64,000 bases of DNA, from positions 22,518 to 86,517 of the forward strand of contig NZ_JAGZRH010000009.1 of assembly GCF_018381775.1 (NCBI RefSeq), written 5' to 3'. The DNA comes from Veillonella sp. GTDB lineage: Bacteria > Bacillota > Negativicutes > Veillonellales > Veillonellaceae. This document shows, one piece after another, positions 6,362 through 29,978 of the stretch. A model generated the notes under the pieces. That model did no database searches. It was not told the origin of the DNA and saw only the letters and a list, made by a program, of their open reading frames with translations. Within the stretch, counting starts at the first letter, position 1. The number at the start of each line of letters is the position of its first letter. A program made the position numbers and the translations under genes.

Positions 6362-6436
6362 GCGGGAATAGCTCAGCGGTAGAGCACCGCCTTGCCAAGG
6401 CGGGGGTCGCGAGTTCGAATCTCGTTTCCCGCTCCA
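6362..6436 (+). tRNA. tRNA-Gly(GCC)
   Basis: 75 nt. Acceptor GCGGGAA/TTCCCGC, anticodon loop CTTGCCAAG, TTCGAAT T-loop, encoded CCA. Confidence 0.9.
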
Positions 6437-6441
6437 TACAT

Positions 6442-6517
6442 TCCTCGATAGCTCAGTTGGTAGAGCAATCGGCTGTTAACCGATCGGTCGTAGGTTCGAG
6501 TCCTACTCGAGGAGCCA
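6442..6517 (+). tRNA. tRNA-Asn(GTT)
   Basis: 76 nt. Acceptor TCCTCGA/TCGAGGA, anticodon loop CTGTTAA, encoded CCA. Confidence 0.9.
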
Positions 6518-6522
6518 TTTAT

Positions 6523-6598
6523 GACTCACTAGCTCAGTTGGCAGAGCACCTGACTTTTAATCAGGGTGTCCCGCGTTCGAGTCGCGGGTGAGTCACCA
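6523..6598 (+). tRNA. tRNA-Lys(TTT)
   Basis: 76 nt. Acceptor GACTCAC/GTGAGTC, anticodon loop CTTTTAA, encoded CCA. Confidence 0.9.
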
Positions 6599-6602
6599 TT
6601 CT

Positions 6603-6677
6603 GGCCCGTTGGTCAAGCGGTTAAGACACCGCCCTTTCACGGCGGTATCCCGGGTTCGATTCCCGGACGGGTCACCA
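6603..6677 (+). tRNA. tRNA-Glu(TTC)
   Basis: 75 nt. GGCCCGTTGGTCAAGCGG…, anticodon loop CTTTCAC, encoded CCA. Confidence 0.9.
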
Positions 6678-6682
6678 CATAT

Positions 6683-6758
<76 letters not shown>

Positions 6759-6761
6759 CAT

Positions 6762-6836
6762 GCGGGAATAGCTCAGCGGTAGAGCACCGCCTTGCCAAGG
6801 CGGGGGTCGCGAGTTCGAATCTCGTTTCCCGCTCCA
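6762..6836 (+). tRNA. tRNA-Gly(GCC), second copy
   Basis: Identical to the 6362-6436 copy. Confidence 0.9.
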
Positions 6837-6843
6837 TTAATAT

Positions 6844-6919
6844 TCCTCGATAGCTCAGTTGGTAGAGCAATCGGCTGTTAACCGATCGGTCGTAGGTTCG
6901 AGTCCTACTCGAGGAGCCA
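6844..6919 (+). tRNA. tRNA-Asn(GTT), second copy
   Basis: Identical to the 6442-6517 copy. Confidence 0.9.
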
Positions 6920-6928
6920 ATTTCATAT

Positions 6929-7003
6929 GGCCCGTTGGTCAAGCGGTTAAGACACCGCCCTTTCACGGCGGTATCCCGGGTTCGATTCCCGGACGGGTCA
7001 CCA
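6929..7003 (+). tRNA. tRNA-Glu(TTC), second copy
   Basis: Identical to the 6603-6677 copy. Confidence 0.9.
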
Positions 7004-7006
7004 CAT

Positions 7007-7082
<76 letters not shown>

Positions 7083-13456: not shown

Positions 13457-14212
13457 ATGGCTCAAGATACAATTAAATGTTATGACGGTCCTAGTGATGT
13501 AGTCCAAGCATTGGCGGAGGATTTTATTGATTTTACTAATGATGAAATTAGCCGTACTGAAACGTGCATCGTTGGTATTACTGGGGGTACTGTTATAAAT
13601 GGTTTGTTAGAATTACTTAACTCTCCTGAATATATTGAGCGCCTTAATTGGGAACGGATATTCTTCTTGTGGACTGATGAGCGTTTCTTACCACAAGCGC
13701 ATGAGGATAATTACTTCAATCGCGTAAAACCTCATTTGCTATGCAAGGCAAAGGGGGCTGCTCATTTCTTGCCAATTAATACGGATTCTAAAACCGTACA
13801 TGAAGCGGCTGAAGAATATGAAAAAGAGGTTCGCAATGTCCTAAAGGCATGTAAAAAATCTGGTCTTGATTTAGCGTTGCTTGATTTAGGCGAGGATGGT
13901 CATACGGCAGGATTATTTGCAGGCTCTCACGCACTGCGTGTAGCTGATCAAGATGTAGTGGCCGTTGAAGATGGCAAGGTATGGGAACGCATTTCTATGA
14001 CATTTTCTTTCCTAGCAAAATCTGATGCTGTCTGGTTTACTGTGACTGGTGAAAGCAAGCGAACTGCATTGACAAAGGTATTATACCAACGCGAAGATTA
14101 CGAGGATTTAACGTGGGAAAAACGCATTGGTCGTACATTGCCTGGTGCTGTGCTTTCACAAGAAGCTGTGACCTGGTATGTGGACAAGGCAGCCTATAAT
14201 GATGTACACTAA
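13457..14212 (+). CDS. pgl: 6-phosphogluconolactonase (NagB/Pgl/DevB family)
   Basis: …GITGGT… plus the LWTDERFLP motif characteristic of Pgl. Confidence 0.75.
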   Translation: MAQDTIKCYDGPSDVVQALAEDFIDFTNDEISRTETCIVGITGGTVINGLLELLNSPEYIERLNWERIFFLWTDERFLPQAHEDNYFNRVKPHLLCKAKGAAHFLPINTDSKTVHEAAEEYEKEVRNVLKACKKSGLDLALLDLGEDGHTAGLFAGSHALRVADQDVVAVEDGKVWERISMTFSFLAKSDAVWFTVTGESKRTALTKVLYQREDYEDLTWEKRIGRTLPGAVLSQEAVTWYVDKAAYNDVH

Positions 14213-14248
14213 AAGATGTAAGTTTTAGTAAATATAAAGGAGATACAT

Positions 14249-14491
14249 ATGGGATCTATAGGAACACCTGAATTAATAGTTATATTAGTGATCGCTTTAG
14301 TTATCTTCGGACCTGGTAAATTACCTGAAGTAGGTAAAGCTATTGGTAAGGGCATCAATGAATTTAAAGATGCTATTTCGGGCCCTAAAAAAGCTGTTGA
14401 TGAAACGAAAGAAGCCGTTAAAAAGGCGACTACTATCGACGTAACAGCAGGGGCTAAAAACGACGATAAACATAAAGAATCTAATGATTAA
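14249..14491 (+). CDS. tatA: twin-arginine translocase subunit TatA/TatE
   Basis: [40 protein letters not shown] is the canonical TatA TM helix plus amphipathic helix. Confidence 0.85.
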
Positions 14492-14505
14492 TAGGAGGTA
14501 TCACT

Positions 14506-14814
14506 ATGTGTAAAGATTGTGGTTGCGGTGAAGATAATGGCGTTGTAACAAAGGTATTTACTGTACCTGGTATGATGTGCAATAACTGTAAAGAAACTGT
14601 TGAAGGTGCATCCCTTGGTTTACCTGGCGTTTTGAGCGCAGAGGTAAATTTGCCAGAGAAAACAGCGACTGTTTCTTTTGATCCAGCAAAAGCATCTGTT
14701 GATGTTATTACAAAAGCTATTGAACGTACAGGCTTTGAAGTAGAAAGCGTTGCAGATGGTGTACAAGAACATAGTCATGGTTTACTAGGAACATTGAAAC
14801 GTTTCTTCAAATAA
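14506..14814 (+). CDS. heavy-metal-associated (HMA) domain protein with a Cys-rich N-terminus (CopZ-like metallochaperone)
   Basis: HMA fold with a metal-binding motif GMMCNNC in place of the canonical GMxCxxC. N-terminal MCKDCGCGEDNG. Confidence 0.7.
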   Translation: MCKDCGCGEDNGVVTKVFTVPGMMCNNCKETVEGASLGLPGVLSAEVNLPEKTATVSFDPAKASVDVITKAIERTGFEVESVADGVQEHSHGLLGTLKRFFK

Positions 14815-14826
14815 TCGAACCCATAG

Positions 14827-14863
14827 GGCTGTATTGAAACACTGTTTCGATGCAGCCTTTTTT
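14827..14863 (+). terminator. rho-independent terminator after the tatA-HMA pair
   Basis: GGCTGTAT…ATGCAGCC stem with an internal GAAAC/GTTTC, followed by TTTTTT. Confidence 0.7.
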
Positions 14864-14880
14864 CATAAAGAGGTAATAAA

Positions 14881-15324
14881 ATGATACGCAAGTTTGATGC
14901 TAAAAATTTCAAGTGGGATGGCGTCGATACCTTGGTATATAAACAAGATGGTAGCCCTTTTAAAGATGTAACACGTCAAGTTTTATACGATGGGGCCTTT
15001 GATATTCCATGCCAATTCCGCTATTTTGAATGCTTGCCAGGTGGGTATTCTACGCTTGAATATCATGAACATACACATATGGTTATGATATTCCGTGGGA
15101 AGGGGCAAGTCTTATTAGGCGATGAAATCCATGATGTAGAAGCTGGTGATTTTATTGAAATTCCAGGTAAAACGATACATCAATTTCGGGCTAATAAAGG
15201 CGATTATATCGGGTTCCTTTGCTTAGTTAACCAAGATCGGGACAAGGTAAAATTATTAACCCCTGAAGAGATGGATACATTGCGCTCTAATCCAAAGATT
15301 AAAGAATTTTTGGAAAGTTGCTAA
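14881..15324 (+). CDS. cupin domain protein
   Basis: Cupin His/Glu metal motif (…LEYHEHTHMVMIFRGKG…HQF…). Confidence 0.65.
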   Translation: MIRKFDAKNFKWDGVDTLVYKQDGSPFKDVTRQVLYDGAFDIPCQFRYFECLPGGYSTLEYHEHTHMVMIFRGKGQVLLGDEIHDVEAGDFIEIPGKTIHQFRANKGDYIGFLCLVNQDRDKVKLLTPEEMDTLRSNPKIKEFLESC

Positions 15325-15326
15325 TT

Positions 15327-15366
15327 TATATGGCGGTTATGTGTGATGACCGCCATATAGTTTTTT
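15327..15366 (+). terminator. rho-independent terminator
   Basis: TATATGGCGG…CCGCCATATA followed by G and TTTTTT. Confidence 0.8.
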
Positions 15367-15413
15367 ATAATCAACAGTAACTATTGATATGTGTAGTTTG
15401 ATAGGGAGGTTCT

Positions 15414-16817
15414 ATGAATACCTTTACACGCGCCGCACTGACGGTACTGGTAGGACTTGTAATTTGGTTCTTGCCTCACACGGAGGCGATTAAGCCTGAA
15501 GGATGGCATTTATTAGCTATCTTCACGGCTACAATTGTAGGTTTTATTTTACGACCTTGGCCAACAGGTATTATGGCACTCTTTGGTATTGTTGCTGCGG
15601 TAGCAACAAATTCTATTACCATGGTGCAAGCATTAGGTGGTTACGCTGAAGCCAATGTATGGCTTATCGTAGCAGCTGTATTCTTTTCTAGAGGCATTAT
15701 TAATTCTGGCCTTGGTAAGCGTATCGCGTATACTTTGATTCGCTCCTTTGGTACTAGTTCCTTAAAGCTAGCTTATGCATTGGCTTGTACAGATCTTATT
15801 ATTTCTCCTGCCACGCCATCTAATACGGCTCGTGGAGGCGGTATTATTTTTCCAATTGTACAAAACATTTCGTTAGCCTTTGATTCTGAGCCAAATGGTA
15901 GTACGGCACGTCGTATTGGGGCATACTTGATGACAACGGCTCATACGATAAACACCATTACTGTAACAATCTTCTTAACTGCTTGTAGTGGTAACTTATT
16001 GATTACATCCTTAGGTGCAAAATTGTTTGGCTATGATATTTCATGGTGGGAATGGTTCCAAGCAGGTGTCATCCCTGGTGTAATTTGCATGATTTTGATG
16101 CCTTGGTTTATTTATAAAATCTATCCACCTGAAATTAAGGAGACACCTCAAGCAGCAGTAATGGCCCAAAAAGAGCTCGATATACTAGGTCCTATTACAA
16201 AGGCTGAAATATCTGTAGCTATTATTTTTGTACTTTGTATTTTGCTGTGGTCCACAGCGATTTGGACGAAGTTACATCCTACCGTAGTTGCTATGATGGG
16301 CGTGCTTGCATGCGTTGTAACAGGATCCCTTACCTGGGAAGATATTCTTGGTGAACGCACAGGTTGGGATATTCTAATCTGGATGGGTACCCTCGTTGGT
16401 ATGGCTGGTTTACTTGGCAAGCTCGGTGTTGTTGCAGTATTTGCTGATTTTGTAAGTCAACATCTTGTAGGTATTGATTGGTTCTGGGCATCCTTTATTA
16501 TCTCTGCAACCTTTGTATACTCTCAATATTTCTTTGCCAGTGGTACAGCTCGTATTACAGCGTTATTCTCCGCCTTTGCAGCTATCTTGGTAGCAATGGG
16601 CGCACCAATTCCATTTACCATCTTGCTCTTTGGTTTGATGAACAGCCCTGGCTGTACATTAACACATTATAGTTCTGGTGTAACGCCAATCTTCTTCGGT
16701 GCTGGTTATGTACCACAAGGCACATGGTGGCGCGTAGGCTTTGCTATTTCTGTGGTTAGCTTCTTAATTCACTTCTGGGGCGGTACCCTTGGCATGTGGC
16801 TATTCGGTATTCTATAA
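15414..16817 (+). CDS. DASS-family (divalent anion:Na+ symporter, 2-oxoglutarate/malate-translocator-like) anion transporter
   Basis: 467 aa and polytopic, with the DASS signature region …SPATPSNTARGGGIIFPI…. Paralog of the gene at 50884-52284. Confidence 0.8.
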   Translation: MNTFTRAALTVLVGLVIWFLPHTEAIKPEGWHLLAIFTATIVGFILRPWPTGIMALFGIVAAVATNSITMVQALGGYAEANVWLIVAAVFFSRGIINSGLGKRIAYTLIRSFGTSSLKLAYALACTDLIISPATPSNTARGGGIIFPIVQNISLAFDSEPNGSTARRIGAYLMTTAHTINTITVTIFLTACSGNLLITSLGAKLFGYDISWWEWFQAGVIPGVICMILMPWFIYKIYPPEIKETPQAAVMAQKELDILGPITKAEISVAIIFVLCILLWSTAIWTKLHPTVVAMMGVLACVVTGSLTWEDILGERTGWDILIWMGTLVGMAGLLGKLGVVAVFADFVSQHLVGIDWFWASFIISATFVYSQYFFASGTARITALFSAFAAILVAMGAPIPFTILLFGLMNSPGCTLTHYSSGVTPIFFGAGYVPQGTWWRVGFAISVVSFLIHFWGGTLGMWLFGIL

Positions 16818-16824
16818 TGCTTAT

Positions 16825-16858
16825 AAATCCCTCACTACGGTGAGGGATTTTCTATTTG
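16825..16858 (+). terminator. rho-independent terminator
   Basis: AAATCCCTCAC-tacg-GTGAGGGATTT followed by TC. Confidence 0.8.
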
Positions 16859-16992
16859 TTCTACCTATTTACTAGTTTGTTATCGATTTATTTTCTATGT
16901 GTATTAGATAGGTAGTGTATTATTTATTATTGCTATAGTTTTTATATATGGTAAACTTTAAAAATTTATATAATAAATCTATAGAATATTTA

Positions 16993-17021
16993 TTGCACGA
17001 CATTATATAAAGTGTTATTAT
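16993..17021 (+). promoter_or_regulatory. candidate promoter (TTGCAC-17-TATTAT) of the ilv leader
   Basis: Spacing is consistent with the consensus, but the background is AT-rich so specificity is low. Confidence 0.3.
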
Positions 17022-17055
17022 TATTTTATGATTACAGATTACTTTAGGAGGAAAC

Positions 17056-17187
17056 ATGTTGGGTTTAGTCATTAGCTTGTTGATTATCGCGCTCGTCGTG
17101 ATTATTAAAGACATTCGAATTATGAACAACAACTTAACACGTTTTTGTCTTAGAAGTTCCACGAATGGTTTAATATACAATCAATAA
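17056..17187 (+). CDS. candidate ilv leader peptide (43 aa; MLGLVISLLIIALVVII…), Ile/Leu/Val-rich attenuation peptide
   Basis: AGGAGG RBS 6 nt upstream. 13 of the first 17 residues are I/L/V. It lies directly upstream of ilvDABN-C and is followed by an intrinsic terminator. Confidence 0.55.
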   Translation: MLGLVISLLIIALVVIIKDIRIMNNNLTRFCLRSSTNGLIYNQ

Positions 17188-17296
17188 GATTTGACTATAC
17201 GGTTTGTTTCTTATGTGTATTTATTCCAAGGGATGCATAGGTCGTTTATGTATATAGGAATTCTGTAAACAAAAGGAATATCATTTGTAAACTTTT

Positions 17297-17327
17297 AAGA
17301 CGATTCATAAGAATCGTCTTTTTTTAT
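17297..17327 (+). terminator. attenuator/terminator hairpin AAGACGATTC-ataa-GAATCGTCTT plus T7, about 50 nt upstream of ilvD
   Basis: Perfect 10-bp stem and 7 U. The 5' arm (TTAAGAC) is complementary to GTCTTAG at the 3' end of the leader ORF, which could form an antiterminator. Confidence 0.65.
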
Positions 17328-17379
17328 TAAGTTGAAAAGTGTCCAAGTGGATGCTTTCAAGAAAAGTGAGGAGATTAAC

Positions 17380-19050
17380 ATGAGTTGTAGAAGTGACAAT
17401 TTAAAAACAGGCGTAGCACGTGCACCACACAGATCTTTGCTAAAAGCTCTTGGTTTTGTTGATGAAGAAATGGGCAGACCAGTCATTGGTATTGCGAACT
17501 CTTTCAACGAAATTATCCCTGGTCACGTGGGCTTGAAAAATATTGTACAAGCCGTAAAAGACGGCATTCGCAACGCAGGTGGTGTGCCAATCGAGTTCAA
17601 TACAATTGGTATTTGTGACGGCTTGGCGATGAACCACATCGGTATGAAATACTCCTTGGTAACTCGTAATATCATCGCTGATTCCATCGAAGCAACAGCT
17701 ATGGCAACACCATTTGATGCTATGGTATTCATTCCAAACTGCGATAAAGTAGTACCTGGTATGTTGATTGCTGCAGCTCGTCTAAACATTCCATCCGTAT
17801 TCGTGTCTGGTGGTGCTATGCTTGCAGGCGTACATAATGGCAAAAAAATAGGTTTGTCTGATGTATTCGAAGCAGTAGGTAAACATCAAACTGGTGAAAT
17901 GGGTGATGCTGAGTTAGCTGAAATCGAAAATACAGCATGTCCTACATGTGGTTCTTGCTCTGGCATGTACACAGCTAATACAATGAACTGCTTAACAGAA
18001 GCTCTTGGTATGGGCCTTCCTGGCAATGGTACAATTCCAGCAGTATACTCTGAACGTTTACGTCTTGCTAAATTAGCAGGTATGCAAGCAGTAGAGGTAT
18101 TGAAAGCAAATCTTCGTCCTAAAGACATTATGACACGCGAAGCCTTTGAAAATGCAGTAGCTCTAGATATGGCTTTGGGTGGTTCCTCTAATACAGCACT
18201 TCATTTGCCAGCTATCGCTCATGAAGCAGGTGTACCATTGTCCTTGGACGACTTCGATCGCATTGCACAAAACACACCTCAATTGTCTAAACTTTCTCCA
18301 TCTGGTAAATACTTCATCGAAGACTTGTATGCTGCCGGCGGCGTATCTGCTGTGTTGAAACGTTTAGCAGAAAATGGTCGTTTGCATACAGATTGCAAAA
18401 CTGTAGCTCTTAAAACACAAGGTGAAATTGCAGCGGCAGCTCATGTTGTGGATGAAGATGTTATCCATCCATGGAATAATCCTGTTCATGAAACAGGTGG
18501 TATTGCCGTTCTTAAAGGTAACCTTGCTCTAGACGGTTCCGTTGTAAAAGCAGGTGCCGTAGATGATGATATGCTCGTTCACTCTGGCCCAGCAAAAGTA
18601 TTTAACAGCGAAGAAGAAGCTGTTGAAGCTATTACAGGCGGTAAAATCGTAAAAGGTGATGTTGTAGTTATCCGTTACGAAGGTCCTAAAGGTGGTCCTG
18701 GCATGCGCGAAATGTTGACACCAACATCCATGATCGCTGGTATGGGTCTTGATAAAGACGTAGCATTGTTGACTGACGGTCGTTTCTCAGGTGCTACACG
18801 TGGTGCATCCATCGGTCACGTATCTCCAGAAGCAGCAGCAGGTGGCACAATTGCTATTGTTGAAGATGGTGATATCATCAACATCGACATTCCGAACGGC
18901 AAATTGGAATTGGCTGTATCTGACGATGAAATCGCTCGCCGTAAAGCAGCATTGAAACCATTCAAATCCAATGTAACTGGATACCTTAAAAAATACGCTC
19001 TTCACGTATCCTCTGCAGCACAAGGTGCTATTGAAGTATTGGAAGACTAA
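17380..19050 (+). CDS. ilvD: dihydroxy-acid dehydratase
   Basis: …[12 protein letters not shown]…, the CDGLAMNH motif and Cys ligands for the Fe-S cluster. GAGGAG RBS. The track's upstream start at 17332 was rejected. Confidence 0.95.
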
Positions 19051-19092
19051 TATTAGACTTTAATTTAATACTATCAATAGGAGATGGTACAC

Positions 19093-20316
19093 ATGCATAA
19101 GTTGTATGATTTTATGGAGGCTCGTGAGAGACTTAGCACAATTACTGTAAAAACAAAACTTCTTCACAGTGATGTGTTCTCCGATGAAAGTGGCAATGAT
19201 GTATATATCAAGCCAGAAAACTTGCAAATAACAGGATCTTTTAAGGTTCGTGGTGCTTATAATAAAATTGCAAAATTAACAGAAGAAGAAAAGGCGCGCG
19301 GCGTTATTGCCGCGTCTGCCGGTAATCATGCGCAAGGTGTAGCGCTTGCTGCAAAACGCCTCGGCATTAAAGCGACAATCGTGATGCCAAAGCATACACC
19401 TCTCATCAAGGTTAATGCTACAAAACAATATGGTGCCGAAGTCGTTCTACATGGTGAGATTTATGATGAAGCTTACCAAAAAGCGATGGAATTACAACAA
19501 GAGCACGGATATGTGTTCGTCCATCCTTTTGATGACGAAGATGTCATCGAAGGGCAAGGTACAATTGCATTAGAAGTTCTTGAGGAATTGCCTGATGCGG
19601 ATGTATTGCTAGTTCCTGTTGGTGGAGGCGGTATTGTTTCTGGTATCGCAGCTGCTGCAAAATTAAAAAATCCTAGCATTAAAATTATCGGTGTAGAACC
19701 AGAAGGCGCGGCTAGTGCAATAGCTGCGTTAAAAGCAGATCATCCTGTACCACTCAGTGAGGTGGCAACTATCGCAGATGGTACAGCTGTACGCCAAATC
19801 GGCGAAACTACATTAGAATATATTAAGAAATATGTAGATGAAATTATTACTGTCTCTGACTATGAATTGATGGAAGCATTTTTGTTGCTTGTAGAAAAAC
19901 ATAAATTAGTAGCAGAAAACTCTGGTATTTTACCATTAGCAGGTCTAAAAAAATTAGACTGTAAAGGCAAAAAGGCAGTAGCCATTGTTAGTGGTGGTAA
20001 TATCGATGTACTTACGATTTCCTCTATGATCAATAAAGGCCTCGTATTGCGTGGTCGTATCTTCACTTTCTCTGTAAACCTTCCTGATAAACCAGGTCAA
20101 TTGGTTGCTGTATCTCAAATGCTTGCAGATGCGGATGCAAACGTTATTAAACTTGATCATAATCAGTTTAAAAACCTTGACCGCTTCCATGAAGTGGAAT
20201 TGCAAGTGACTGTAGAAACAAATGGTGAAGAACACATTCAACACATTATTGATACTTTCAAAAATAATGGTTACATTATTAAACGGTTAAATTCCAGCGA
20301 GATTTTATCTGAATAG
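19093..20316 (+). CDS. ilvA: threonine ammonia-lyase (biosynthetic; PLP domain plus C-terminal ACT-like domain)
   Basis: PLP-lysine motif GSFKVRGA and a glycine loop GGGGI. AGGAG RBS 10 nt upstream. Confidence 0.9.
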   Translation: MHKLYDFMEARERLSTITVKTKLLHSDVFSDESGNDVYIKPENLQITGSFKVRGAYNKIAKLTEEEKARGVIAASAGNHAQGVALAAKRLGIKATIVMPKHTPLIKVNATKQYGAEVVLHGEIYDEAYQKAMELQQEHGYVFVHPFDDEDVIEGQGTIALEVLEELPDADVLLVPVGGGGIVSGIAAAAKLKNPSIKIIGVEPEGAASAIAALKADHPVPLSEVATIADGTAVRQIGETTLEYIKKYVDEIITVSDYELMEAFLLLVEKHKLVAENSGILPLAGLKKLDCKGKKAVAIVSGGNIDVLTISSMINKGLVLRGRIFTFSVNLPDKPGQLVAVSQMLADADANVIKLDHNQFKNLDRFHEVELQVTVETNGEEHIQHIIDTFKNNGYIIKRLNSSEILSE

Positions 20317-20334
20317 CTGGTCGAAAGGGTTCCT

Positions 20335-22044
20335 ATGAGCGCAGAAACAATCAATGGGGCACGCATTGTCCTTGAAACATTGCATCGCCTTGGTGTAACC
20401 GAGATGTTCGGTTATCCAGGTGGCGCAGTAATTCCAATTTATGATGAAATTTATAGCTTCCCTGAAATTAAACATTATTTTGTTCGTCATGAACAAGGTG
20501 CTGCCCATGCAGCAGATGGTTATGCACGCGTATCTGGAAAAGTAGGCGTATGCCTTGCTACGTCCGGTCCTGGTGCAACTAATCTTGTTACCGGTATTAT
20601 GACTGCTTACATGGATTCTGTACCTATGGTGGCCATTACTGGTCAGGTTGGTCGTCCGTTTATTGGTAAGGATTCTTTCCAAGAAGCAGATATCCAAGGT
20701 ATTACCATGCCGATTACAAAACATAACTACCTTGTTCAAGATATTCGCGATTTACCTCGCATCATTAAAGAAGCGTATTTTATTGCTAGTACAGGTCGTC
20801 CAGGTCCTGTTCTTATTGATATTCCTAAGGATATTCAAACAGAAAAAATATCCATGACAGAATACAATAAATTATATGAAGTACCTATCCATCTTGAAGG
20901 TTATGATCCTACATATAAAGGTCATCAAGGGCAAATTAAGAAAGCGGCTACGCTTATTAAAAATGCGAAACGTCCGCTCATCATTGCCGGTGCCGGTGTA
21001 TTGAAATCTGGCGCTATGGATGAGTTAAAGGAATTGGCAGAAAAGGCTCAAATTCCTGTAACAAATACATTAGTTGGCCTTGGTGGGTTCCCAGGTAACC
21101 ATGAGCTTGCTCTTGGTATGGTGGGTATGCATGGATCTGTAGCGGCTAACAACTGCACAGAAGAAGCTGACCTTGTTATTGCTGCAGGTATTCGTTTCCA
21201 CGACCGCATTACAGGCCATCCAGATTTCTTCTGTAAAAAAGCTAAAATCATTCATATTGATATCGACCCAGCAGAAATTGATAAAAACGTTACTATTAAC
21301 GTACCAATCGTAGGTGATTTAAAGAGAGTTTTAACGGAACTTAATACGCTTGTAGAACCTACAACTCATGAAGCGTGGATCGGACAAATTCGTGAATGGC
21401 AAGCGGAATATCCTATGGTAATTCCTGAATCTAAAGATGGTGTATTACATCCACAATACGTATTATCTGAACTTAACAAGATTGCCAAAGAGGATGCAGT
21501 TATTGTAACTGACGTAGGCCAACATCAAATGTGGGCAGCTCAATTCTTAACTCATAAAAAACCTCATACCATTGTTACATCTGGTGGTGCAGGTACTATG
21601 GGCTATGGTTTACCAGCTGCAATTGGGGCTCAAGTGGGGGCACCTCATAAACAAGTTATCCTTGTTGTTGGTGATGGTGGATTCCAAATGACCTTTGAAG
21701 AACTCATGATGGTTCGTCAATATAATTTGCCAATTAAAATTCTAATCATCAACAATGGTTACCTTGGCATGGTTCGTCAATGGCAACAAATCTTTAATAA
21801 TCGCCGCTACTCCTATGTAGATTTGGAAGTGAGTCCAGACTTCTTGAAATTGGCAGATGCCTTTGATTTGAAAGCTGCTCGTATCGATAATGTAGAGGAT
21901 TTCAATAAAGAATTTAAATCTTTCATTACATCTGATGAAAGTATCATCTTGGATTGCCGTGTAGCAAGAGAAGATAATGTATTGCCGATGATTCCAGCTG
22001 GCGGTACCGTAAGTGGTATGATGGGCAAGAAAGGGGTGCTATAA
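20335..22044 (+). CDS. ilvB: acetolactate synthase large subunit
   Basis: ThDP-binding motif GDGGFQM; about 569 aa. Confidence 0.9.
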   Translation: MSAETINGARIVLETLHRLGVTEMFGYPGGAVIPIYDEIYSFPEIKHYFVRHEQGAAHAADGYARVSGKVGVCLATSGPGATNLVTGIMTAYMDSVPMVAITGQVGRPFIGKDSFQEADIQGITMPITKHNYLVQDIRDLPRIIKEAYFIASTGRPGPVLIDIPKDIQTEKISMTEYNKLYEVPIHLEGYDPTYKGHQGQIKKAATLIKNAKRPLIIAGAGVLKSGAMDELKELAEKAQIPVTNTLVGLGGFPGNHELALGMVGMHGSVAANNCTEEADLVIAAGIRFHDRITGHPDFFCKKAKIIHIDIDPAEIDKNVTINVPIVGDLKRVLTELNTLVEPTTHEAWIGQIREWQAEYPMVIPESKDGVLHPQYVLSELNKIAKEDAVIVTDVGQHQMWAAQFLTHKKPHTIVTSGGAGTMGYGLPAAIGAQVGAPHKQVILVVGDGGFQMTFEELMMVRQYNLPIKILIINNGYLGMVRQWQQIFNNRRYSYVDLEVSPDFLKLADAFDLKAARIDNVEDFNKEFKSFITSDESIILDCRVAREDNVLPMIPAGGTVSGMMGKKGVL

Positions 22045-22532
22045 TGGCGAGAGAACATCAAGTCTTAGTAATTGCAAAAAATACAGCAGGCATTGGTGCA
22101 CGTATATTGGCACTCTTTAACCGTCGTGGTTTTAATGTTACAAAGATGACATCTGGCATTACAAATACACCAGGCTACGCTCGTATTACCCTCACCGTTG
22201 AGGCAGATGATCGCATCTTAGACCAAATTCAAAAACAAATTTACAAGCTCATTGATGTGGTAAAGGTTAAAGTTTTTGAAGATCATGATGTGGTATGCCG
22301 TGAGTTAATGCTTATTAAGGTAAAAGCAACTGCTGCAACACGCTCTCAAATTGTACAAATTGCCGATGTATATCGTGGCAATGTGCTCGATATTTCTCCT
22401 ACTTCTATGATTATTGAAGTAATTGGTAGCGTAGAAAAATTACGCGGTTTCATTCAAATTATGGAAACTTATGGTGTCCTTGAAATTGCCAAAACTGGCA
22501 TTACCGCAATGAGCCGTGGAGAAAAGATTTAG
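22044..22532 (+). CDS. ilvN: acetolactate synthase small (regulatory) subunit
   Basis: ACT domain N-terminus. Start overlaps the ilvB stop (TAATG). Confidence 0.9.
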   Translation: MAREHQVLVIAKNTAGIGARILALFNRRGFNVTKMTSGITNTPGYARITLTVEADDRILDQIQKQIYKLIDVVKVKVFEDHDVVCRELMLIKVKATAATRSQIVQIADVYRGNVLDISPTSMIIEVIGSVEKLRGFIQIMETYGVLEIAKTGITAMSRGEKI

Positions 22533-22543
22533 GAGATGGTTGT

Positions 22544-23329
22544 GTGAGTAGTGAATTACTCCATTATGAAGACGTCAAGTTTCGTCGTGAAGGTCGCGAA
22601 ATTTTAAAAGGCATTAATTGGCATGTTGAAGAAGGGGAAAATTGGGCCTTATTAGGTCTCAATGGGGCTGGTAAATCGACAATGCTCAGCATGATTCCAG
22701 CTTACCAAATTCCTACAACAGGACTATTACGCGTATTTGGTCATGAATTTGGTAAATATGCGTGGCCTAAGATCAAGGCCCGATTAGGCTTTGTTAGTTC
22801 GGCGCTTGGACAATTCCAGTCCACCTTGGATAAACAAGTCGTAGAAGATGTTGTTATTTCTGGTGCTTTTAATAGTATTGGTATTTATCAACAGGTAGAG
22901 CCTGAAGTACGTGAACGAGGACTGCAATTATTGTCTGAGTTTGGTTTGGCCTATTTGGAAGGCCATAGATTTCATACACTATCTGCTGGTGAACAGCGCC
23001 GCGTATTATTAGCACGTGCTATTATGGCTAATCCAGATTTGCTCATTTTAGATGAGCCTTGCTCTGGTCTTGATTTGCCTGCTCGCGAGCAATTCTTAGC
23101 AACTGTTGAGAATATGGCACGAGAGGAACATAAGCCTTTTGTTTATGTATCTCATCAAATTGAAGAGATTATGCCCAGTATTACACATGTAGCTATTATT
23201 AAAGATGGCCTCATTGTGTATAAAGGCAAGAAGCGGGACATCTTAACAGATGAAATTCTCAGCGACGTATTTGGTATTGATGTATCTGTTGTATGGGAGA
23301 AAAATCGCCCATGGATTATAGTTAAATAA
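22544..23329 (+). CDS. ABC transporter ATP-binding protein (orphan; embedded in the ilv operon)
   Basis: Walker A GLNGAGKST, signature LSAGEQRR, Walker B LLILDEP. GTG start with AGGAG 8 nt upstream. No permease is adjacent. Confidence 0.8.
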   Translation: MSSELLHYEDVKFRREGREILKGINWHVEEGENWALLGLNGAGKSTMLSMIPAYQIPTTGLLRVFGHEFGKYAWPKIKARLGFVSSALGQFQSTLDKQVVEDVVISGAFNSIGIYQQVEPEVRERGLQLLSEFGLAYLEGHRFHTLSAGEQRRVLLARAIMANPDLLILDEPCSGLDLPAREQFLATVENMAREEHKPFVYVSHQIEEIMPSITHVAIIKDGLIVYKGKKRDILTDEILSDVFGIDVSVVWEKNRPWIIVK

Positions 23330-23405
23330 GAGCTAAAATTAGGGTAATTCATTTTTTCTTAATACAAAAAGGGTACAAATTTAAGTTGTAGATTAGTCTA
23401 TTTGA

Positions 23406-24521
<1,116 letters not shown>

Positions 24522-24560
24522 GAGTATTATATAGTAATCTCTTGTAAGATAAAGCATACC

Positions 24561-24590
24561 AAAGCGACTCCTAAGGGGGTCGCTTTTTTA
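24561..24590 (+). terminator. rho-independent terminator after ilvC
   Basis: AAAGCGAC-tcctaagggg-GTCGCTTT followed by TTTTA. Confidence 0.85.
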
Positions 24591-24689
24591 TCGTTTTATA
24601 ATATATTTCTTGGTACTATACATTGTTATATCGAAAATATTGGCATAAGGTATGGTATAATAAAAAGTAATCTATGAAAGGAGAACGAT

Positions 24690-25151
24690 ATGGATTTCTA
24701 CACATTATCCTATGTTGAAAGTTTGGCTGTAGGGGGCCAAACATGGGGCTTTATTATCTTTGTTGCTGTTTTATTAGCACTACTCGTTTTGGGCATACAA
24801 GTTCTGCGAAATGGCTTTACCAGTCGTTATCGTGACCTAATGGTCATCTTGTCTTTGATAGTGGTATTTTTCTTAGGCCTTGAGTATCAAGAGTATAATC
24901 GAATGAAAACATATTCTGAAGACTCTTCTCGTATGGCTCAATTTTTACATTCTTTTAGTGCTGATCGTTCTGTACCAAGTGAGCAATTAGCAGTCAACTC
25001 CTTAAAAATTCGCAATGGTATGATTTTAAAGGTAAGTGATGATTATTATGAGGTTCAGTTTAATCCAGAATTTTCAACCTATACAATTACTCGTGTGTAT
25101 AAGGTGAGCCCAACAGAGCGTATTCATGATAAAGCGGACGTATTACCATAA
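24690..25151 (+). CDS. small membrane protein (DUF3290-like; assignment uncertain)
   Basis: Two N-terminal TM helices followed by a soluble domain. Precedes a YetF-like gene by 12 nt, a recurrent DUF3290/DUF421 pairing (recalled, not searched). Confidence 0.5.
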   Translation: MDFYTLSYVESLAVGGQTWGFIIFVAVLLALLVLGIQVLRNGFTSRYRDLMVILSLIVVFFLGLEYQEYNRMKTYSEDSSRMAQFLHSFSADRSVPSEQLAVNSLKIRNGMILKVSDDYYEVQFNPEFSTYTITRVYKVSPTERIHDKADVLP

Positions 25152-25163
25152 GGAGGAGCGTAA

Positions 25164-25883
25164 ATGACAGAAGCTATGGCCGTCTATGGAATGGTCTTTG
25201 CCAAACTCGCCATCGGTCTCTTGGCGATTATCTTACAAATCAACTTAATGGGGAAGGGCAACTTAGCGCCAACCTCTGCTTTGGACCAATTACAAAACTA
25301 TGTACTTGGTGGTATTATCGGTGCCATTATTTACAATGACCAAATCGGTATTTTACAGTTTATGTTAGTCCTCATTTTATGGACTATACTTGTAATGACG
25401 CTTAAGTTCTTAAAAGGAAATTTCCGATTCTTTAAAACTATTTTGGATGGACATCCTGTAATTGTTATTGAAAATGGTCATATCTTAACAGAAGAATGTA
25501 TGCGTTATGGCATTCAAGCGGCGGAGCTTAAGTTAAAGCTTCGTACAGCAGGTGTTCAATATGTTACGGATGTTAAGCGTGCTGTATTGGAGCAAAATGG
25601 TCAGCTCAGCGTAGTTCAATTTGGTGATGAGAATATTAAATTTGACCTTATTGATGATGGTCAAATTAACCATTTTACATTAGATATAATTGAAAAAGGC
25701 CAGGATTGGCTAGAAGAAGAAGTTGAAAAGCAAGGCTATAAAATTAAGGATGTATACATTGCAGAATACAAAGATGGGGAAGTTGTTATTTACCCTTATG
25801 AAAAAAAACATCGCCCTCAAATTGTAAAAACACTTAAAGATAAGACCTCTCATACAAAGGATAAATTGAAATCTAAATTGTAA
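25164..25883 (+). CDS. DUF421/YetF-family membrane protein
   Basis: N-terminal 3-TM region plus a YetF-like C-terminal domain with a Lys-rich tail. Confidence 0.6.
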   Translation: MTEAMAVYGMVFAKLAIGLLAIILQINLMGKGNLAPTSALDQLQNYVLGGIIGAIIYNDQIGILQFMLVLILWTILVMTLKFLKGNFRFFKTILDGHPVIVIENGHILTEECMRYGIQAAELKLKLRTAGVQYVTDVKRAVLEQNGQLSVVQFGDENIKFDLIDDGQINHFTLDIIEKGQDWLEEEVEKQGYKIKDVYIAEYKDGEVVIYPYEKKHRPQIVKTLKDKTSHTKDKLKSKL

Positions 25884-26020
25884 TGTTTCTTGGTCTTATA
25901 GTATAGTTAAGATAAGTATTATATACTACTCTTATAGACATACAAATATAGACATACAAACGATATATAAAATGTTTTTAAGCCCACTATTCGTAGTGGG
26001 CTTATATAGAAAGGAAATTA

Positions 26021-27748
26021 GTGAACCGTAAAGATTTAATTGATCGATTACAAGAACTTTATAAAGATGAAGATAGCCGCGTAACTATTAACCCGCATGC
26101 AGGGCAGAAGGTAGCAATCGTCTATCCTAATACATATTTTGTAGGCATGAGTAATCTTGGTCTCCACATTATTTATGAGGAAATCAACTTACGCAATGAT
26201 AGCGTATGTGAACGTATCTTCTTGCCTGAGAAAAAGGAATTAGAAGCATACGATAAGACTAAGACGCCATTGATGAGTGTTGAAACACAGCGGCCTATGC
26301 ATCAATTTGATGTGGTGGCCTTTGACGTGACCTTTGAAATGGACTATTTTCATATTCCGTTGATGTTACGTCATGGACGCGTACCTATTATGGGGAAAGA
26401 CCGCACAGAATTTGATCCTATCGTCATTGCCGGTGGCCCATGTGCTACCTTTAATCCAGAGCCTTTTGCAGACTTTATCGATGCTTTCATCATCGGAGAA
26501 GGGGAAGGTATCGTTAGTCGCGTTCTAGATATCATTCGCGATGGCAAAATGGAGGGCCTAGATCGACATGCTATTTTGCGTCAATTAGCGAATATATCTG
26601 GGGTGTATGTACCATCATTGTACGTGCCAATTTACAGCGACGACGGCGAATTTAAAGGTTATGATATTGCTGAAGGCGCACCAACAACGATTAAACGCCA
26701 CTTTGAAATGCTTACTAGTGGCGGCGAAACCGTAGTAGCAACAAACTATACAGAATTTGGCGCTATGTACATCATCGAGGTTGCGCGTGGTTGTGGTCGT
26801 CATTGTCGATTCTGTATGGCCGGCTATTGTTTCCGTGTACCGCGCGTACGACCTTTAGAAATATTAAAAGAAGGCGTAGATAGAGCAGAGAAATTAGGTA
26901 AAAAGGTAGGCCTTATGGGGGCCGCTATTTCTGATTATCCAGAGGTAGATGAGTTAGTTACTTATATTCGTTCTAAAGATATGCGTTATTCTTGCGCATC
27001 CTTGCGGGCAGACTCCTTAACACAAGCCGTTGTAGATGGCTTGGCAGATAGTGGGCAAAAGACGATTACCATTGCGCCAGAAACGGGCAGTGAACGATTG
27101 CGGCGCGTAATTAATAAGGGTATTAGCGAAGAGCATTTACAAAATGCTGCCACCTTATCTGCTAAGTCTGGCATCCAGCATATGCGTCTCTATATTATGA
27201 TTGGCCTTCCAACGGAAACAGACGAAGATATCGAGGCAATCGTAGGCCTGGCAGAAAGGACGCAAGCCCATATGGCAGAGGTAGGCTGTAAAGGTCGTTT
27301 AACGCTCAGTATCAATCCATTTATTCCAAAGCCTTTTACACCATTCCAATGGATGGCTATGGATCATCAAAAAACGGTGGAGAAAAAACTTCAATATATT
27401 AAAAAAGCATTGCAAAAGAACCGTCGTATAGAGGTGCTCGTTGAATCACCTAAAGAGGCGTATATCCAAGGCGTACTAGCTCGTGGTGATCGCCGTCTTG
27501 GTGCTGTTCTTGCGGCATGTGCAGCAGATCGTGGCAGTAAGTCCTTTAAGTCTGAAATGAAGGCTGCCGGCCTCGACATGGACGAGATGAACTATCGTGA
27601 ACGCAGCTTTGATGAATTTTTACCATGGAGTCACCTCGACATGGGGATGGACGATGGATATCTTGAAATGGAATGGAAACGTTCTGTGGATGAAGCGTAT
27701 ACACCGCCATGTGTACAAGGCTGTAAGCGATGTGGTGTATGTAAATAG
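26021..27748 (+). CDS. radical SAM protein with an N-terminal B12-binding-like domain (TIGR03960-like)
   Basis: CxxxCxxC motif ARGCGRHCRFCMAGY, a C-terminal Cys cluster CVQGCKRCGVC, and a GTG start. Confidence 0.8.
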   Translation: MNRKDLIDRLQELYKDEDSRVTINPHAGQKVAIVYPNTYFVGMSNLGLHIIYEEINLRNDSVCERIFLPEKKELEAYDKTKTPLMSVETQRPMHQFDVVAFDVTFEMDYFHIPLMLRHGRVPIMGKDRTEFDPIVIAGGPCATFNPEPFADFIDAFIIGEGEGIVSRVLDIIRDGKMEGLDRHAILRQLANISGVYVPSLYVPIYSDDGEFKGYDIAEGAPTTIKRHFEMLTSGGETVVATNYTEFGAMYIIEVARGCGRHCRFCMAGYCFRVPRVRPLEILKEGVDRAEKLGKKVGLMGAAISDYPEVDELVTYIRSKDMRYSCASLRADSLTQAVVDGLADSGQKTITIAPETGSERLRRVINKGISEEHLQNAATLSAKSGIQHMRLYIMIGLPTETDEDIEAIVGLAERTQAHMAEVGCKGRLTLSINPFIPKPFTPFQWMAMDHQKTVEKKLQYIKKALQKNRRIEVLVESPKEAYIQGVLARGDRRLGAVLAACAADRGSKSFKSEMKAAGLDMDEMNYRERSFDEFLPWSHLDMGMDDGYLEMEWKRSVDEAYTPPCVQGCKRCGVCK

Positions 27749-27757
27749 GAGGCACTT

Positions 27758-28612
27758 ATGAATCAATCTGTAAAACGTATAGATGTTAAAGGACCTCATG
27801 GTACTTGGTCTTATGAAACTCCTAATTGGGCAGACCATTTTCCTATTACAATAGGTGATACGTACCGTCATGGTGGTGTATCTCAAGAGCCCTATGAATC
27901 ACTAAATTTAGCCTTTCACGTAGGGGATAAGCCGCAGCATGTTCGTGAAAACCGTGCTATTGTTGCTGAATATTTAGGTGTTGAACCAGAGCGAATCTCT
28001 TGTGGTAATCAAGTACATGGTTTAAAGGCTGTGGAAATCACAGAAGGCCTCATAGGGGCAGGTGCCTTTGGAGAGGATACAGCTATAGCCGATTGTGATG
28101 CTGTATTTACAAAATTACCGAATGTACCACTATTTTTATTTACTGCTGATTGTGTAGCTGTAGGTATTTATGATGCTAAGCATCACGCTATCGCTACGGT
28201 ACATGCAGGCTGGCGCGGGGCGATAGGCCATTTGCCTGTACTTACCATTGAGGCTATGAAAGAGGCGTATGGTACGGAGTTCAAAGATTGTTATGTATAT
28301 CTTGGGCCTAGCATTGGGCCAGAATCCTTTGAAGTCGATGTAGAGTTAGGGAAACGTTTTGAAATAGCTTGGCGTGGTATGACCGACCGTAGTGTGGCTG
28401 ATATTGTAAACTATCCAGGTGATAAACTAGATAAAGCCTATATCAACTTATGGAACTTTATCGCCGAAGGCCTTATGGTGAATGGTGTGCCTAAAGAAAA
28501 TATCGCTATTGGCGGTACCGATACAGTAACAGATAAAGATTGTTATTCCTATCGTCGGGAATCTGGTAAAACAGGTCGCATGGCTTTATTTGGTATGCTA
28601 CAAGAACGGTAG
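27758..28612 (+). CDS. pgeF: peptidoglycan editing factor PgeF (YfiH/YlmD/DUF152 laccase-domain family)
   Basis: …NQVHG…, …FTADCVAV…, …HAGWRG… conserved His/Cys residues. Confidence 0.85.
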   Translation: MNQSVKRIDVKGPHGTWSYETPNWADHFPITIGDTYRHGGVSQEPYESLNLAFHVGDKPQHVRENRAIVAEYLGVEPERISCGNQVHGLKAVEITEGLIGAGAFGEDTAIADCDAVFTKLPNVPLFLFTADCVAVGIYDAKHHAIATVHAGWRGAIGHLPVLTIEAMKEAYGTEFKDCYVYLGPSIGPESFEVDVELGKRFEIAWRGMTDRSVADIVNYPGDKLDKAYINLWNFIAEGLMVNGVPKENIAIGGTDTVTDKDCYSYRRESGKTGRMALFGMLQER

Positions 28613-29480: not shown

Positions 29481-29978
29481 ATGGCATTGGGAGATTATTT
29501 AGACAAAGCAAAAAACTTATTCTTAGGCAAAAATGATGATGACTATGAATATGATGATTATGACTATGAAGATGAAGAGGAATACGAAGCGGAACCTACA
29601 CCAGTAGCTCCAGTAGCTCCAGTATCCGGCGCATCTGAATTTCATCCACGCAAGGTAGGAGGCCAATCTACGATGACACAACGTCCAACAGCTATGAAAG
29701 TAGTTGTAATTGAACCAAAAGTATTTGAAGATTCTGAAAATATTACACATCAATTACGCGACATGCGTCCTGTATTGATTAACTTTGAAAATACAGATCC
29801 TCATGAAGCAGCACGTATTGTGGACTTCGTATCTGGTGCGACTTTTGCATTGGATGGTAAATTGGAAAAGGTGGGTAAGGACATTTTCATGTGCGTACCT
29901 GTAAATATTTCCATTGATTATTCTGATAATGAAAGTAACAAAACTGAGCAAAACGAATACGCTTGGGAAAACAAATAA
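29481..29978 (+). CDS. sepF: cell division protein SepF
   Basis: Acidic low-complexity N-terminus plus a conserved SepF C-terminal domain (…VVVIEPKVFEDSENITHQLRDMRPVLINFENTD…). Confidence 0.85.
   Translation: MALGDYLDKAKNLFLGKNDDDYEYDDYDYEDEEEYEAEPTPVAPVAPVSGASEFHPRKVGGQSTMTQRPTAMKVVVIEPKVFEDSENITHQLRDMRPVLINFENTDPHEAARIVDFVSGATFALDGKLEKVGKDIFMCVPVNISIDYSDNESNKTEQNEYAWENK

Follow-up and report, generated by a model that had tools for sequence, protein, structure and literature searches.

A conserved Ile/Leu/Val-rich leader upstream of the ilvD operon of Veillonella is probably a ribosome-mediated transcription attenuator shared with Fusobacteriota

We analysed a stretch of 64 kb from a Veillonella sp. 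(contig NZ_JAGZRH010000009.1), called here the window, whose positions are used for all coordinates, and in particular the leader region (16993-17379) of its branched-chain amino acid (BCAA) biosynthesis operon. An initial annotation, made from the sequence alone, had proposed that this leader carries a peptide-based attenuator upstream of the genes ilvD-ilvA-ilvB-ilvN-ABC ATPase-ilvC. NCBIfam matches bear out this gene order, and the IlvD of the window is 97-99% identical to that of the Veillonella parvula/dispar group. The ATG of ilvD lies at 17380, with a GAGGAG at 17368-17373. On the other side, the leader is preceded by a gene for a DASS transporter, which stops at 16817 and has its own terminator at 16825-16850. 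The features found between these two genes are collected in Table 1: a short leader open reading frame (ORF) rich in codons for Ile, Leu and Val (ILV), preceded by a Shine-Dalgarno (SD) sequence, an intrinsic terminator, and two segments, numbered 2 and 3 by analogy with four-segment attenuators, that can pair with each other to form an antiterminator.

Table 1. Features of the ilvD leader and of the operon that follows it (window positions)
Feature	Position	Strand	Basis
Candidate sigma-70 promoter	16993..17021	+	-35 TTGCAC at 16993-16998, 17-nt spacer, extended -10 TGnTATTAT at 17013-17021
Shine-Dalgarno AGGAGG, 4 nt 5′ of the leader ATG	17046..17051	+	sequence
Leader ORF, 43 codons, MLGLVISLLIIALVVIIKDIRIMNNNLTRFCLRSSTNGLIYNQ followed by stop	17056..17187	+	translation
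Regulatory codons (proposed)	17059..17121	+	codons 2-22: 7 Ile, 5 Leu, 3 Val (15/21)
Candidate 1:2 hairpin (anti-antiterminator or pause hairpin)	17103..17175	+	in minimum free energy fold of the leader
Segment 2, antiterminator 5′ strand, inside ORF codons 30-38	17145..17169	+	complementarity
Variable spacer, ORF stop to segment 3, antiterminator loop	17188..17279	+	lowest conservation
Segment 3, antiterminator 3′ strand, overlaps first 7 nt of terminator 5′ arm	17280..17303	+	complementarity
Intrinsic terminator: 10-bp stem, 4-nt loop, U-tract	17297..17325	+	fold, terminator scan
Operon under the proposed control: ilvD 17380-19050; ilvA 19084-20316; ilvB 20335-22044; ilvN 22044-22532; ABC-type ATPase 22544-23329; ilvC to 24521	17380..24521	+	NCBIfam matches above curated cutoffs for ilvD, ilvA, ilvB, ilvN, ilvC

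The leader ORF is present as it had been described, with its AGGAGG ribosome-binding site, and its translation agrees with the reported content of 13 ILV residues among the first 17 and 19 among all 43. Such a start is unique in the window: among the 424 ORFs of 20-80 amino acids that begin with ATG in the six frames, no other has 13/17 ILV residues at its start, and the runners-up reach 11/17 and have no SD sequence. The 50 long ORFs of the window attain at most 12/17 over any 17-residue stretch, and the DASS transporter at most 9/17. With the local ILV frequency of 0.25, 13 or more ILV residues in 16 have a probability of 3.9e-6; if a frequency of 0.45 is assumed, the probability is still only 3.5e-3. 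The ILV codon bias of the leader ORF exceeds both chance and the composition of a membrane helix. When three leader peptides were compared with NCBIfam, the only match was a sub-threshold one to the IlvL leader peptide of Escherichia coli (NF007744; 14.4 bits for the peptide of the window against a cutoff of 59, E = 0.02, residues 4-17), and Pfam gave no match with the leader peptide. This resemblance to IlvL is one of composition, and indicates neither homology nor membership of the family.

Two further ORFs were considered and rejected. An antisense ORF of 86 amino acids (16920-17180) has no Pfam match and was discarded as an artefact of AT-rich sequence. A minus-strand ORF of 76 amino acids (29523-29753), examined as a possible second leader, has an I/F/V run at its end with 13/17 ILV residues; this run lies antisense to an acidic D/E/Y-rich repeat of the plus-strand gene 29481-29978 and is a mirror-image artefact.

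Comparison with other ilvD loci was based on a scan for IlvD using one genome per species, which yielded 80 loci; 21 leaders were compared in detail, one of them (L044) being cut off at a contig end. An SD sequence and an ILV-rich ORF, followed by a terminator, are found 5′ of ilvD in the V. parvula group, in V. absiana and in four further Veillonella lineages. The same layout precedes ilvD in V. intestinalis, V. ratti, strain R32 and a Veillonellaceae metagenome-assembled genome, and also in Leptotrichia, Fusobacterium and Sebaldella. The conservation of the ORF and of its I/L/V run at orthologous loci, which the initial annotation had proposed as a check, is therefore verified in Veillonella lineages whose IlvD proteins are 76-99% identical to that of the window and, beyond them, in Fusobacteriota. 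Of the Veillonellaceae lineages sampled, a single one (L020 and L021, see below) departs from this layout. Nearly all of the 21 leaders have a GGAG or AGGAGG 5′ of their ORF, and ilvD-ilvA-ilvB-ilvN synteny is kept in most related loci. Between lineages the leader peptides cannot be aligned as proteins (for example MVLLAILVLVLFILVNVIRTNNSIEVAFSSVELPS, MLLFILILILVILLINTDKQTNNKISLKKFLEL, MKILVLLVILLVGIIELIE...). Within codons 2-25, every lineage with a leader has 13-19 ILV codons, although the succession of I, L and V is not the same from one lineage to another, and the length of the ORF varies from 30 to 52 codons. No ILV-rich leader was found in more distant ilvD loci (Ilyobacter, Psychrilyobacter, Clostridia, Syntrophomonadaceae), several of which have ilvD inside an operon. 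When 14 further ilvD loci were run through Rfam, a T-box was obtained only in L068.

The stem of the terminator is perfect (17297-17320, AAGACGATTC/ATAA/GAATCGTCTT), with a free energy of -12.3 kcal/mol and z = -5.5 against shuffles. The initial annotation had described a 10-bp hairpin followed by U7. The hairpin stands; the U7 does not, as the T run at 17319-17325 includes the last two bases of the stem, and what follows the stem is five U and then AUU. Across 17 aligned sequences, 98% of the terminator cells are paired and three pairs are changed on both sides. The stem sequence is near-identical across Veillonella and Fusobacteriota, and the mean pairwise identity of the terminator over 11 lineages is 0.75.

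The heptamer GTCTTAG near the end of the leader ORF had been noted as complementary to the 5′ arm of this terminator. The complementarity is real and larger than supposed: in the window, positions 17145-17158 pair with 17290-17303 over 14 bp, and positions 17161-17169 with 17280-17288 over 9 bp. The antiterminator takes up 7 of the 10 nt of the terminator 5′ arm, which makes the two structures mutually exclusive. The duplex between the terminator arm and the ORF has z = -4.8 in the window, and none of 200 shuffles was as good. We also used a position-free test, in which the terminator 5′ flank and arm were matched by RNAduplex against the whole upstream leader in each of the 21 leaders and compared with dinucleotide shuffles. 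For 19 of these leaders the strongest match fell immediately downstream of the ILV run, at ORF nt 67-119. In 12 of the 21, no more than 1% of the shuffles equalled the real duplex, and z scores went down to -5. In Sebaldella and in the divergent Fusobacterium leader L057 the segment sequences are unrelated to those of Veillonella, yet the duplex is kept (z = -3.7 and z = -3.9, respectively).

Compensatory change within the antiterminator was assessed on a plain MAFFT alignment of 17 leaders (A1). On this alignment 85% of the antiterminator cells are paired; shifting the 3′ strand by 1-3 columns lowers this share to 39-53%. At the column pair 120/311, C-G occurs in 8 sequences and U-A in 8, and no shuffle attains the observed covariation score. 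One column covaries three ways, between segments 2, 3 and 4, as is expected if one strand must serve two helices. The spacer between the ORF stop and segment 3 (17188-17279) is by comparison the least conserved part of the leader, with a mean pairwise identity of 0.20 and 37% gaps over 11 lineages, and the distance from stop codon to terminator varies from 23 to 120 nt across lineages.

We further compared nine distinct alleles of the V. parvula group for the type of substitution carried by the leader ORF. In codons 2-17, five of six changes are synonymous (TTA/TTG, ATC/ATT, CTC/CTG/CTA). Codons 18-43 contain seven variable codons, of which six carry non-synonymous changes. Both changes that fall in segment 2 (AGA to AAA and AGT to GGT) preserve antiterminator pairing, by replacing G-U with A-U or A-U with G-U. 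Because the changes in the ILV run are synonymous and those in segment 2 are non-synonymous but keep the pairs, codon identity appears to be under purifying selection and the product to be irrelevant; at the level of alleles, this indicates that selection would act on the identity of the ILV-run codons and not on the peptide. Such a pattern is expected if the need for particular codons constrains the 5′ half of the ORF, and RNA pairing its 3′ half.

These data bear on the possibility that the product of the ORF is a real membrane peptide, small and hydrophobic, that the terminator belongs to its gene and that ilvD is transcribed independently. The peptide has 17 N-terminal residues followed by charged ones, as would a single-pass helix, it is preceded by a strong SD sequence and followed by a terminator, and in some lineages a gap of 140-320 nt between terminator and ilvD leaves room for a second promoter. 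In the window, however, the terminator and the ilvD ATG are only 54 nt apart, with no promoter-like site predicted between them. The 13/17 ILV content is above that of every real membrane segment of the window, the C-terminal half shows no conservation at the peptide level and accumulates non-synonymous changes, and some of the ORF sequence is held to complementarity with the terminator arm. In addition, the ORF is always directly 5′ of ilvD, over two phyla, and no protein family is matched apart from the sub-threshold IlvL. We therefore regard a functional membrane peptide as highly improbable.

A second possibility is that the leader is a cis-regulatory RNA binding a metabolite, ppGpp or a protein, in which the short ORF is incidental. 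A structured element has indeed been published for V. parvula (NC_013520) as the 'ilvD motif' WRC-18-2, with 73 representatives, all in Veillonella (Brewer et al. 2021, PMC8632094). It is always located 5′ of ilvD and followed by a terminator, and has uncharacteristically long stems and little covariation; its authors graded it as a weak riboswitch candidate, or possibly a small RNA or protein-binding RNA, suggested BCAA-pathway compounds or ppGpp as ligands, and made no mention of a leader peptide (PMC8632094). Genus, gene, position and long stems all agree, and the leader region described here is most likely this motif. Also in favour of a riboswitch-like element, the leader (17030-17335) folds better than its shuffles (z = -3.25). 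The conserved part, however, is an ORF with an SD sequence and mostly synonymous changes in its ILV run (five of six), and the only non-coding stretch of the size of an aptamer is the spacer, the least conserved region of all. A conserved non-coding aptamer with covarying helices 5′ of the terminator was not found. The leaders of Sebaldella and of Fusobacterium L057, unrelated in sequence, keep the ILV run and the 2:3 pairing and have no common fold. The scarcity of covariation and the atypical stems were remarked upon by the authors of the motif themselves (PMC8632094).

Searches against known RNA families point in the same direction, no Rfam family being matched by the leader. No T-box, amino-acid leader or riboswitch was detected by Rfam in the window at gathering thresholds, nor over 14000-28000 at E <= 10. 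Within 16993-17379, the Leu, Thr, His, Trp and Phe leader models gave no match at E <= 10, and only chance minus-strand matches resembling snoRNAs appeared. The absence of a T-box from the locus, which had first been judged from consensus letters, thus holds even at this permissive threshold. Taken with the evidence above, a riboswitch-like element in which the ORF plays no part is in our view improbable.

The place of the promoter is relevant to whether the ORF is transcribed with the operon. The candidate sigma-70 promoter of Table 1 was recognized by eye; a consensus promoter scan gave a weaker match at 16997-17024, which overlaps it. By eye again, TTGC..-17-(TGn)TAnnAT occurs at the equivalent position in V. 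absiana, V. intestinalis, R32 and the Veillonellaceae locus L038. From this promoter, transcription is predicted to start at ~17028-17030, 5′ of the leader ORF.

The leader combines an SD-preceded 5′ ORF, clustered codons for the end products of the pathway, an intrinsic terminator and an antiterminator exclusive with it. We conclude that it is probably a ribosome-mediated leader-peptide transcription attenuator of the ilvD-ilvA-ilvB-ilvN-ABC-ilvC operon. The peptide-based reading of the initial annotation is in this respect supported by the conservation of the ORF, by compensatory change in the antiterminator and by the substitution pattern of the ILV run. The mechanism could operate as follows. 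Transcription would start ~25 nt 5′ of the 43-codon leader ORF, and the first ribosome would read 15 ILV codons packed into codons 2-22. When charged tRNA-Ile, tRNA-Leu or tRNA-Val is scarce, the ribosome would be held in the ILV run and segment 2 (17145-17169) would be left naked. Upon synthesis of segment 3 (17280-17303), the long-range 2:3 antiterminator would then form and consume 7 of the 10 nt of the terminator arm, permitting readthrough into ilvD. With plentiful Ile, Leu and Val, the ribosome would run past segment 2 to the stop codon. Segment 2 would in this fed state be covered or unwound by the ribosome, or re-paired upstream, so that the hairpin at 17297-17320 could form with its U-tract and transcription would end.

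Several observations weigh against an attenuator of this kind, or at least against its classical form. The leaders are phylogenetically related, and the shuffle statistics overstate their independence. A significant 2:3 duplex was not found in 2 of the 21 leaders (L026 and L044). The loop closed by the 2:3 helix is unusually long (60-145 nt) and, depending on the lineage, the stop codon lies 1-68 nt 3′ of segment 2. Two loci from uncultured Veillonella (L020, UMGS1291, and L021, UMGS1231; IlvD 85-86%) keep the terminator and have no ILV-rich ORF: at 3800-4000 in L020 and L021, a terminator of the same family, GGACGATTCC-TAGG-AATCGTCC, lies 5′ of ilvD, and the leader is short and directly preceded by a different gene. 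These two lineages may have lost or remodelled the attenuator.

The points against it also concern what would block the 2:3 pairing in the fed state. The candidate 1:2 hairpin (17103-17175) is present, at -12.0 kcal/mol, in the minimum free energy fold of the leader, with a z score of only -1.4. Duplexes between segments 1 and 2, evaluated by RNAduplex against shuffles, were not better than the shuffles except in Fusobacterium, and RNAalifold found no consensus helix within the ORF. A conserved 1:2 element of the four-segment design, which would prevent 2:3 pairing under plentiful amino acids, is not supported statistically. Folding was also performed with a masked ribosome, whose 30-nt footprint was set to one of three positions: codon 10, the end of the ILV run and the stop codon. 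With full leaders at equilibrium, the terminator had a probability of ~0.9 in most leaders whatever the position of the footprint. When transcripts were truncated 5′ of segment 4, the V. parvula antiterminator had a probability of 0.74 at every ribosome position, and a ribosome-dependent change was obtained in some lineages only. In the classical trp attenuator the terminator is the most stable helix and the choice is kinetic, and equilibrium folding likewise shows no switch. Because the trp attenuator behaves in this way, we consider the equilibrium result uninformative and not contrary.

Predictions from the pre-terminator transcripts can be read in two ways. In the four leaders where the stop codon abuts segment 2 (L019, L022, L024 and L025), the predicted probability of 2:3 pairing falls to 0.00-0.06 with a ribosome at the stop, and is 0.69-0.85 if the ribosome is instead stalled where the ILV run ends. 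This is consistent with a three-element attenuator, in which there is no 1:2 hairpin, the ribosome alone blocks 2:3 pairing, and the long spacer times the polymerase against the first ribosome. The location of segment 2 inside the ORF (19/21 leaders), the lack of significant or conserved pairing between segments 1 and 2 outside Fusobacterium, and the long distance from segment 2 to segment 3 in all lineages (60-145 nt) agree with such a design. On the other hand, a terminating ribosome would not cover segment 2 in V. parvula, V. intestinalis, Leptotrichia and Sebaldella, where the stop codon comes 20-68 nt after it. Moreover, the predictions for pre-terminator transcripts have segment 2 paired at 55-85% and partially released only with the ribosome at the last ILV codons, which fits the classical 1:2 arrangement. 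Release is predicted at Ile22 in V. parvula (pairing probability from 0.72 to 0.38) and at Asn16-Asp18, just past the run, in Fusobacterium; in these models the release is compatible with the classical 1:2 model, though weakly so. On balance we hold the three-element design to be possible but rather doubtful, and retain ribosome-mediated attenuation by the leader peptide as the probable function, whichever element acts in the fed state.

A block of the leader ORF that follows the ILV run, ATGAACAAxAACTTAACA (17122-17139, encoding MNNNLT), is conserved at the nucleotide level, third positions included, in six Veillonella lineages, and the flanking peptide varies. No pairing partner was found for it. 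The AACTT that it contains is similar to the 5′ end of segment 3, and may act as a weak segment 1.

The operon ilvD-ilvA-ilvB-ilvN(-ABC) together with the leader ORF is common to Veillonella and Fusobacteriota (L026, L029, L030, L031, L036, L039). IlvD and IlvA are 71-80% identical between Veillonella and Leptotrichia, Fusobacterium or Sebaldella, and in most of the loci shared with Fusobacteriota the terminator stem is near-identical (AAGRCGATT...AATCGYCTT). Because the operon, the leader ORF, this degree of IlvD and IlvA identity and the near-identical stem are all shared, the comparison suggests that the operon and its cis-regulator may have been transferred between phyla, among oral and gut anaerobes. 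A wider picture would join four propositions, namely that the ribosome acts as the anti-antiterminator, that the spacer serves for timing, that the regulatory cassette travels between Negativicutes and Fusobacteriota with ilvD-A-B-N, and that an orphan riboswitch candidate is in fact a sensor based on an upstream ORF. That all four should hold jointly is a tentative idea, which we think unlikely to be right in every part.

Other observations were made on the operon and its surroundings. The ABC-type ATPase gene (22544-23329) sits between ilvN and ilvC without an adjacent permease gene in the operon. Its best NCBIfam matches are ModF-like and heme-ABC-like, both below cutoff, and it is kept 3′ of ilvN in Veillonella and Fusobacterium loci (L020, L025, L031, L038). 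Directly 3′ of the ilvC stop codon, a weak Rfam match to Phe_leader (24519-24590; 22.8 bits against a cutoff of 55) is probably the terminator hairpin of the operon and not a leader. A locus from a contig binned as 'Sutterella' (L059, 3469-5657) has a Veillonella-like ilvD (82%) split in two frames with GC-rich sequence 5′ of it, which probably reflects a chimeric assembly or mis-binning of the contig. Elsewhere in the window, an array of nine tRNA genes (6362-7082) has the order Gly-Asn-Lys-Glu-Val-Gly-Asn-Glu-Val, copies of the same type scoring identically in Rfam.

Attenuation by leader peptides is an established mechanism for the enterobacterial ilvGMEDA and ilvBN operons, of a kind known since the 1970s. 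The Veillonella leader resembles ilvL and ivbL of E. coli and Salmonella in that an SD-preceded ORF mixes Ile, Leu and Val over ~17-20 codons, which amounts to multivalent sensing, in that the terminator stands 5′ of the first biosynthetic gene, and in that the antiterminator overlaps the 5′ arm of this terminator. It differs from them by the absence of sequence homology and by its hosts, which are Negativicutes and Fusobacteriota. The ORF is also longer (30-52 codons), with the ILV run at its extreme N-terminus and segment 2 inside it, the antiterminator loop has 60-145 nt instead of being short, and a 1:2 hairpin is not demonstrable here. T-boxes (RF00230), such as that of Bacillus subtilis ilv-leu, bind tRNA directly and sense its charging. 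The two systems are alike in that tRNA charging governs the choice between terminator and antiterminator before BCAA genes, but in the leader described here sensing would proceed via the translating ribosome.

The closest parallel in Firmicutes is ilvD of Staphylococcus aureus, for which an Ile/Leu-rich attenuator peptide is backed by suppressor mutations and reporters (Kaiser et al. 2018, PMC5794164). There, as in Veillonella, a short ORF, in this case Ile/Leu-rich, and a terminator lie 5′ of ilvD as the first gene of the operon, and there is no functional T-box (PMC5794164). Unlike the leader described here, however, the S. aureus peptide has 26 amino acids with only 3 Ile and 5 Leu, and the proposed antiterminator sequesters the poly-U tail and not the 5′ arm of the terminator; CodY is a dominant second input in S. 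aureus (PMC5794164). The sequences of the two leaders are unrelated. No CodY-box was found near the ilvD promoter of the window, and a scan of the 64 kb gave 5 matches with 3 mismatches, against a chance mean of 7.3. BCAA leader peptides have also been predicted for leu-ilv of Lactococcus lactis, for Streptococcus spp. and for ilvBNC of Corynebacterium glutamicum (PMC5794164). These Gram-positive leaders are elements of the same kind in front of other genes and in other lineages. The contrast made in the initial annotation, that most Firmicutes use T-boxes, was overstated in view of the supported leader peptide of S. aureus and of those predicted for Lactococcus, Streptococcus and Corynebacterium (PMC5794164).

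Our reading goes beyond the published description of the ilvD motif in three respects: the element is interpreted as a leader-peptide attenuator, it is extended to Fusobacteriota, and covariation is found in its antiterminator. Literature searches for an ilv leader peptide in Veillonella or Fusobacterium returned nothing besides the ilvD-motif paper, and those for ilv regulation in Negativicutes or Fusobacteriota yielded no description. The type of mechanism is not new in principle; what is likely to be new is its occurrence in Negativicutes and Fusobacteriota and the reinterpretation of a riboswitch candidate. An orphan conserved RNA would thereby gain a concrete mechanism and, if this is true, ligand screens would be futile, and tests of codons and of tRNA charging would be apt. 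BCAA leader-peptide attenuation would be extended to Negativicutes and Fusobacteriota, which are abundant oral and gut anaerobes. The unusual layout of the leader, with its N-terminal ILV run, a segment 2 within the ORF, a very long loop and no clear 1:2 hairpin, would make it a natural test of the four-segment design.

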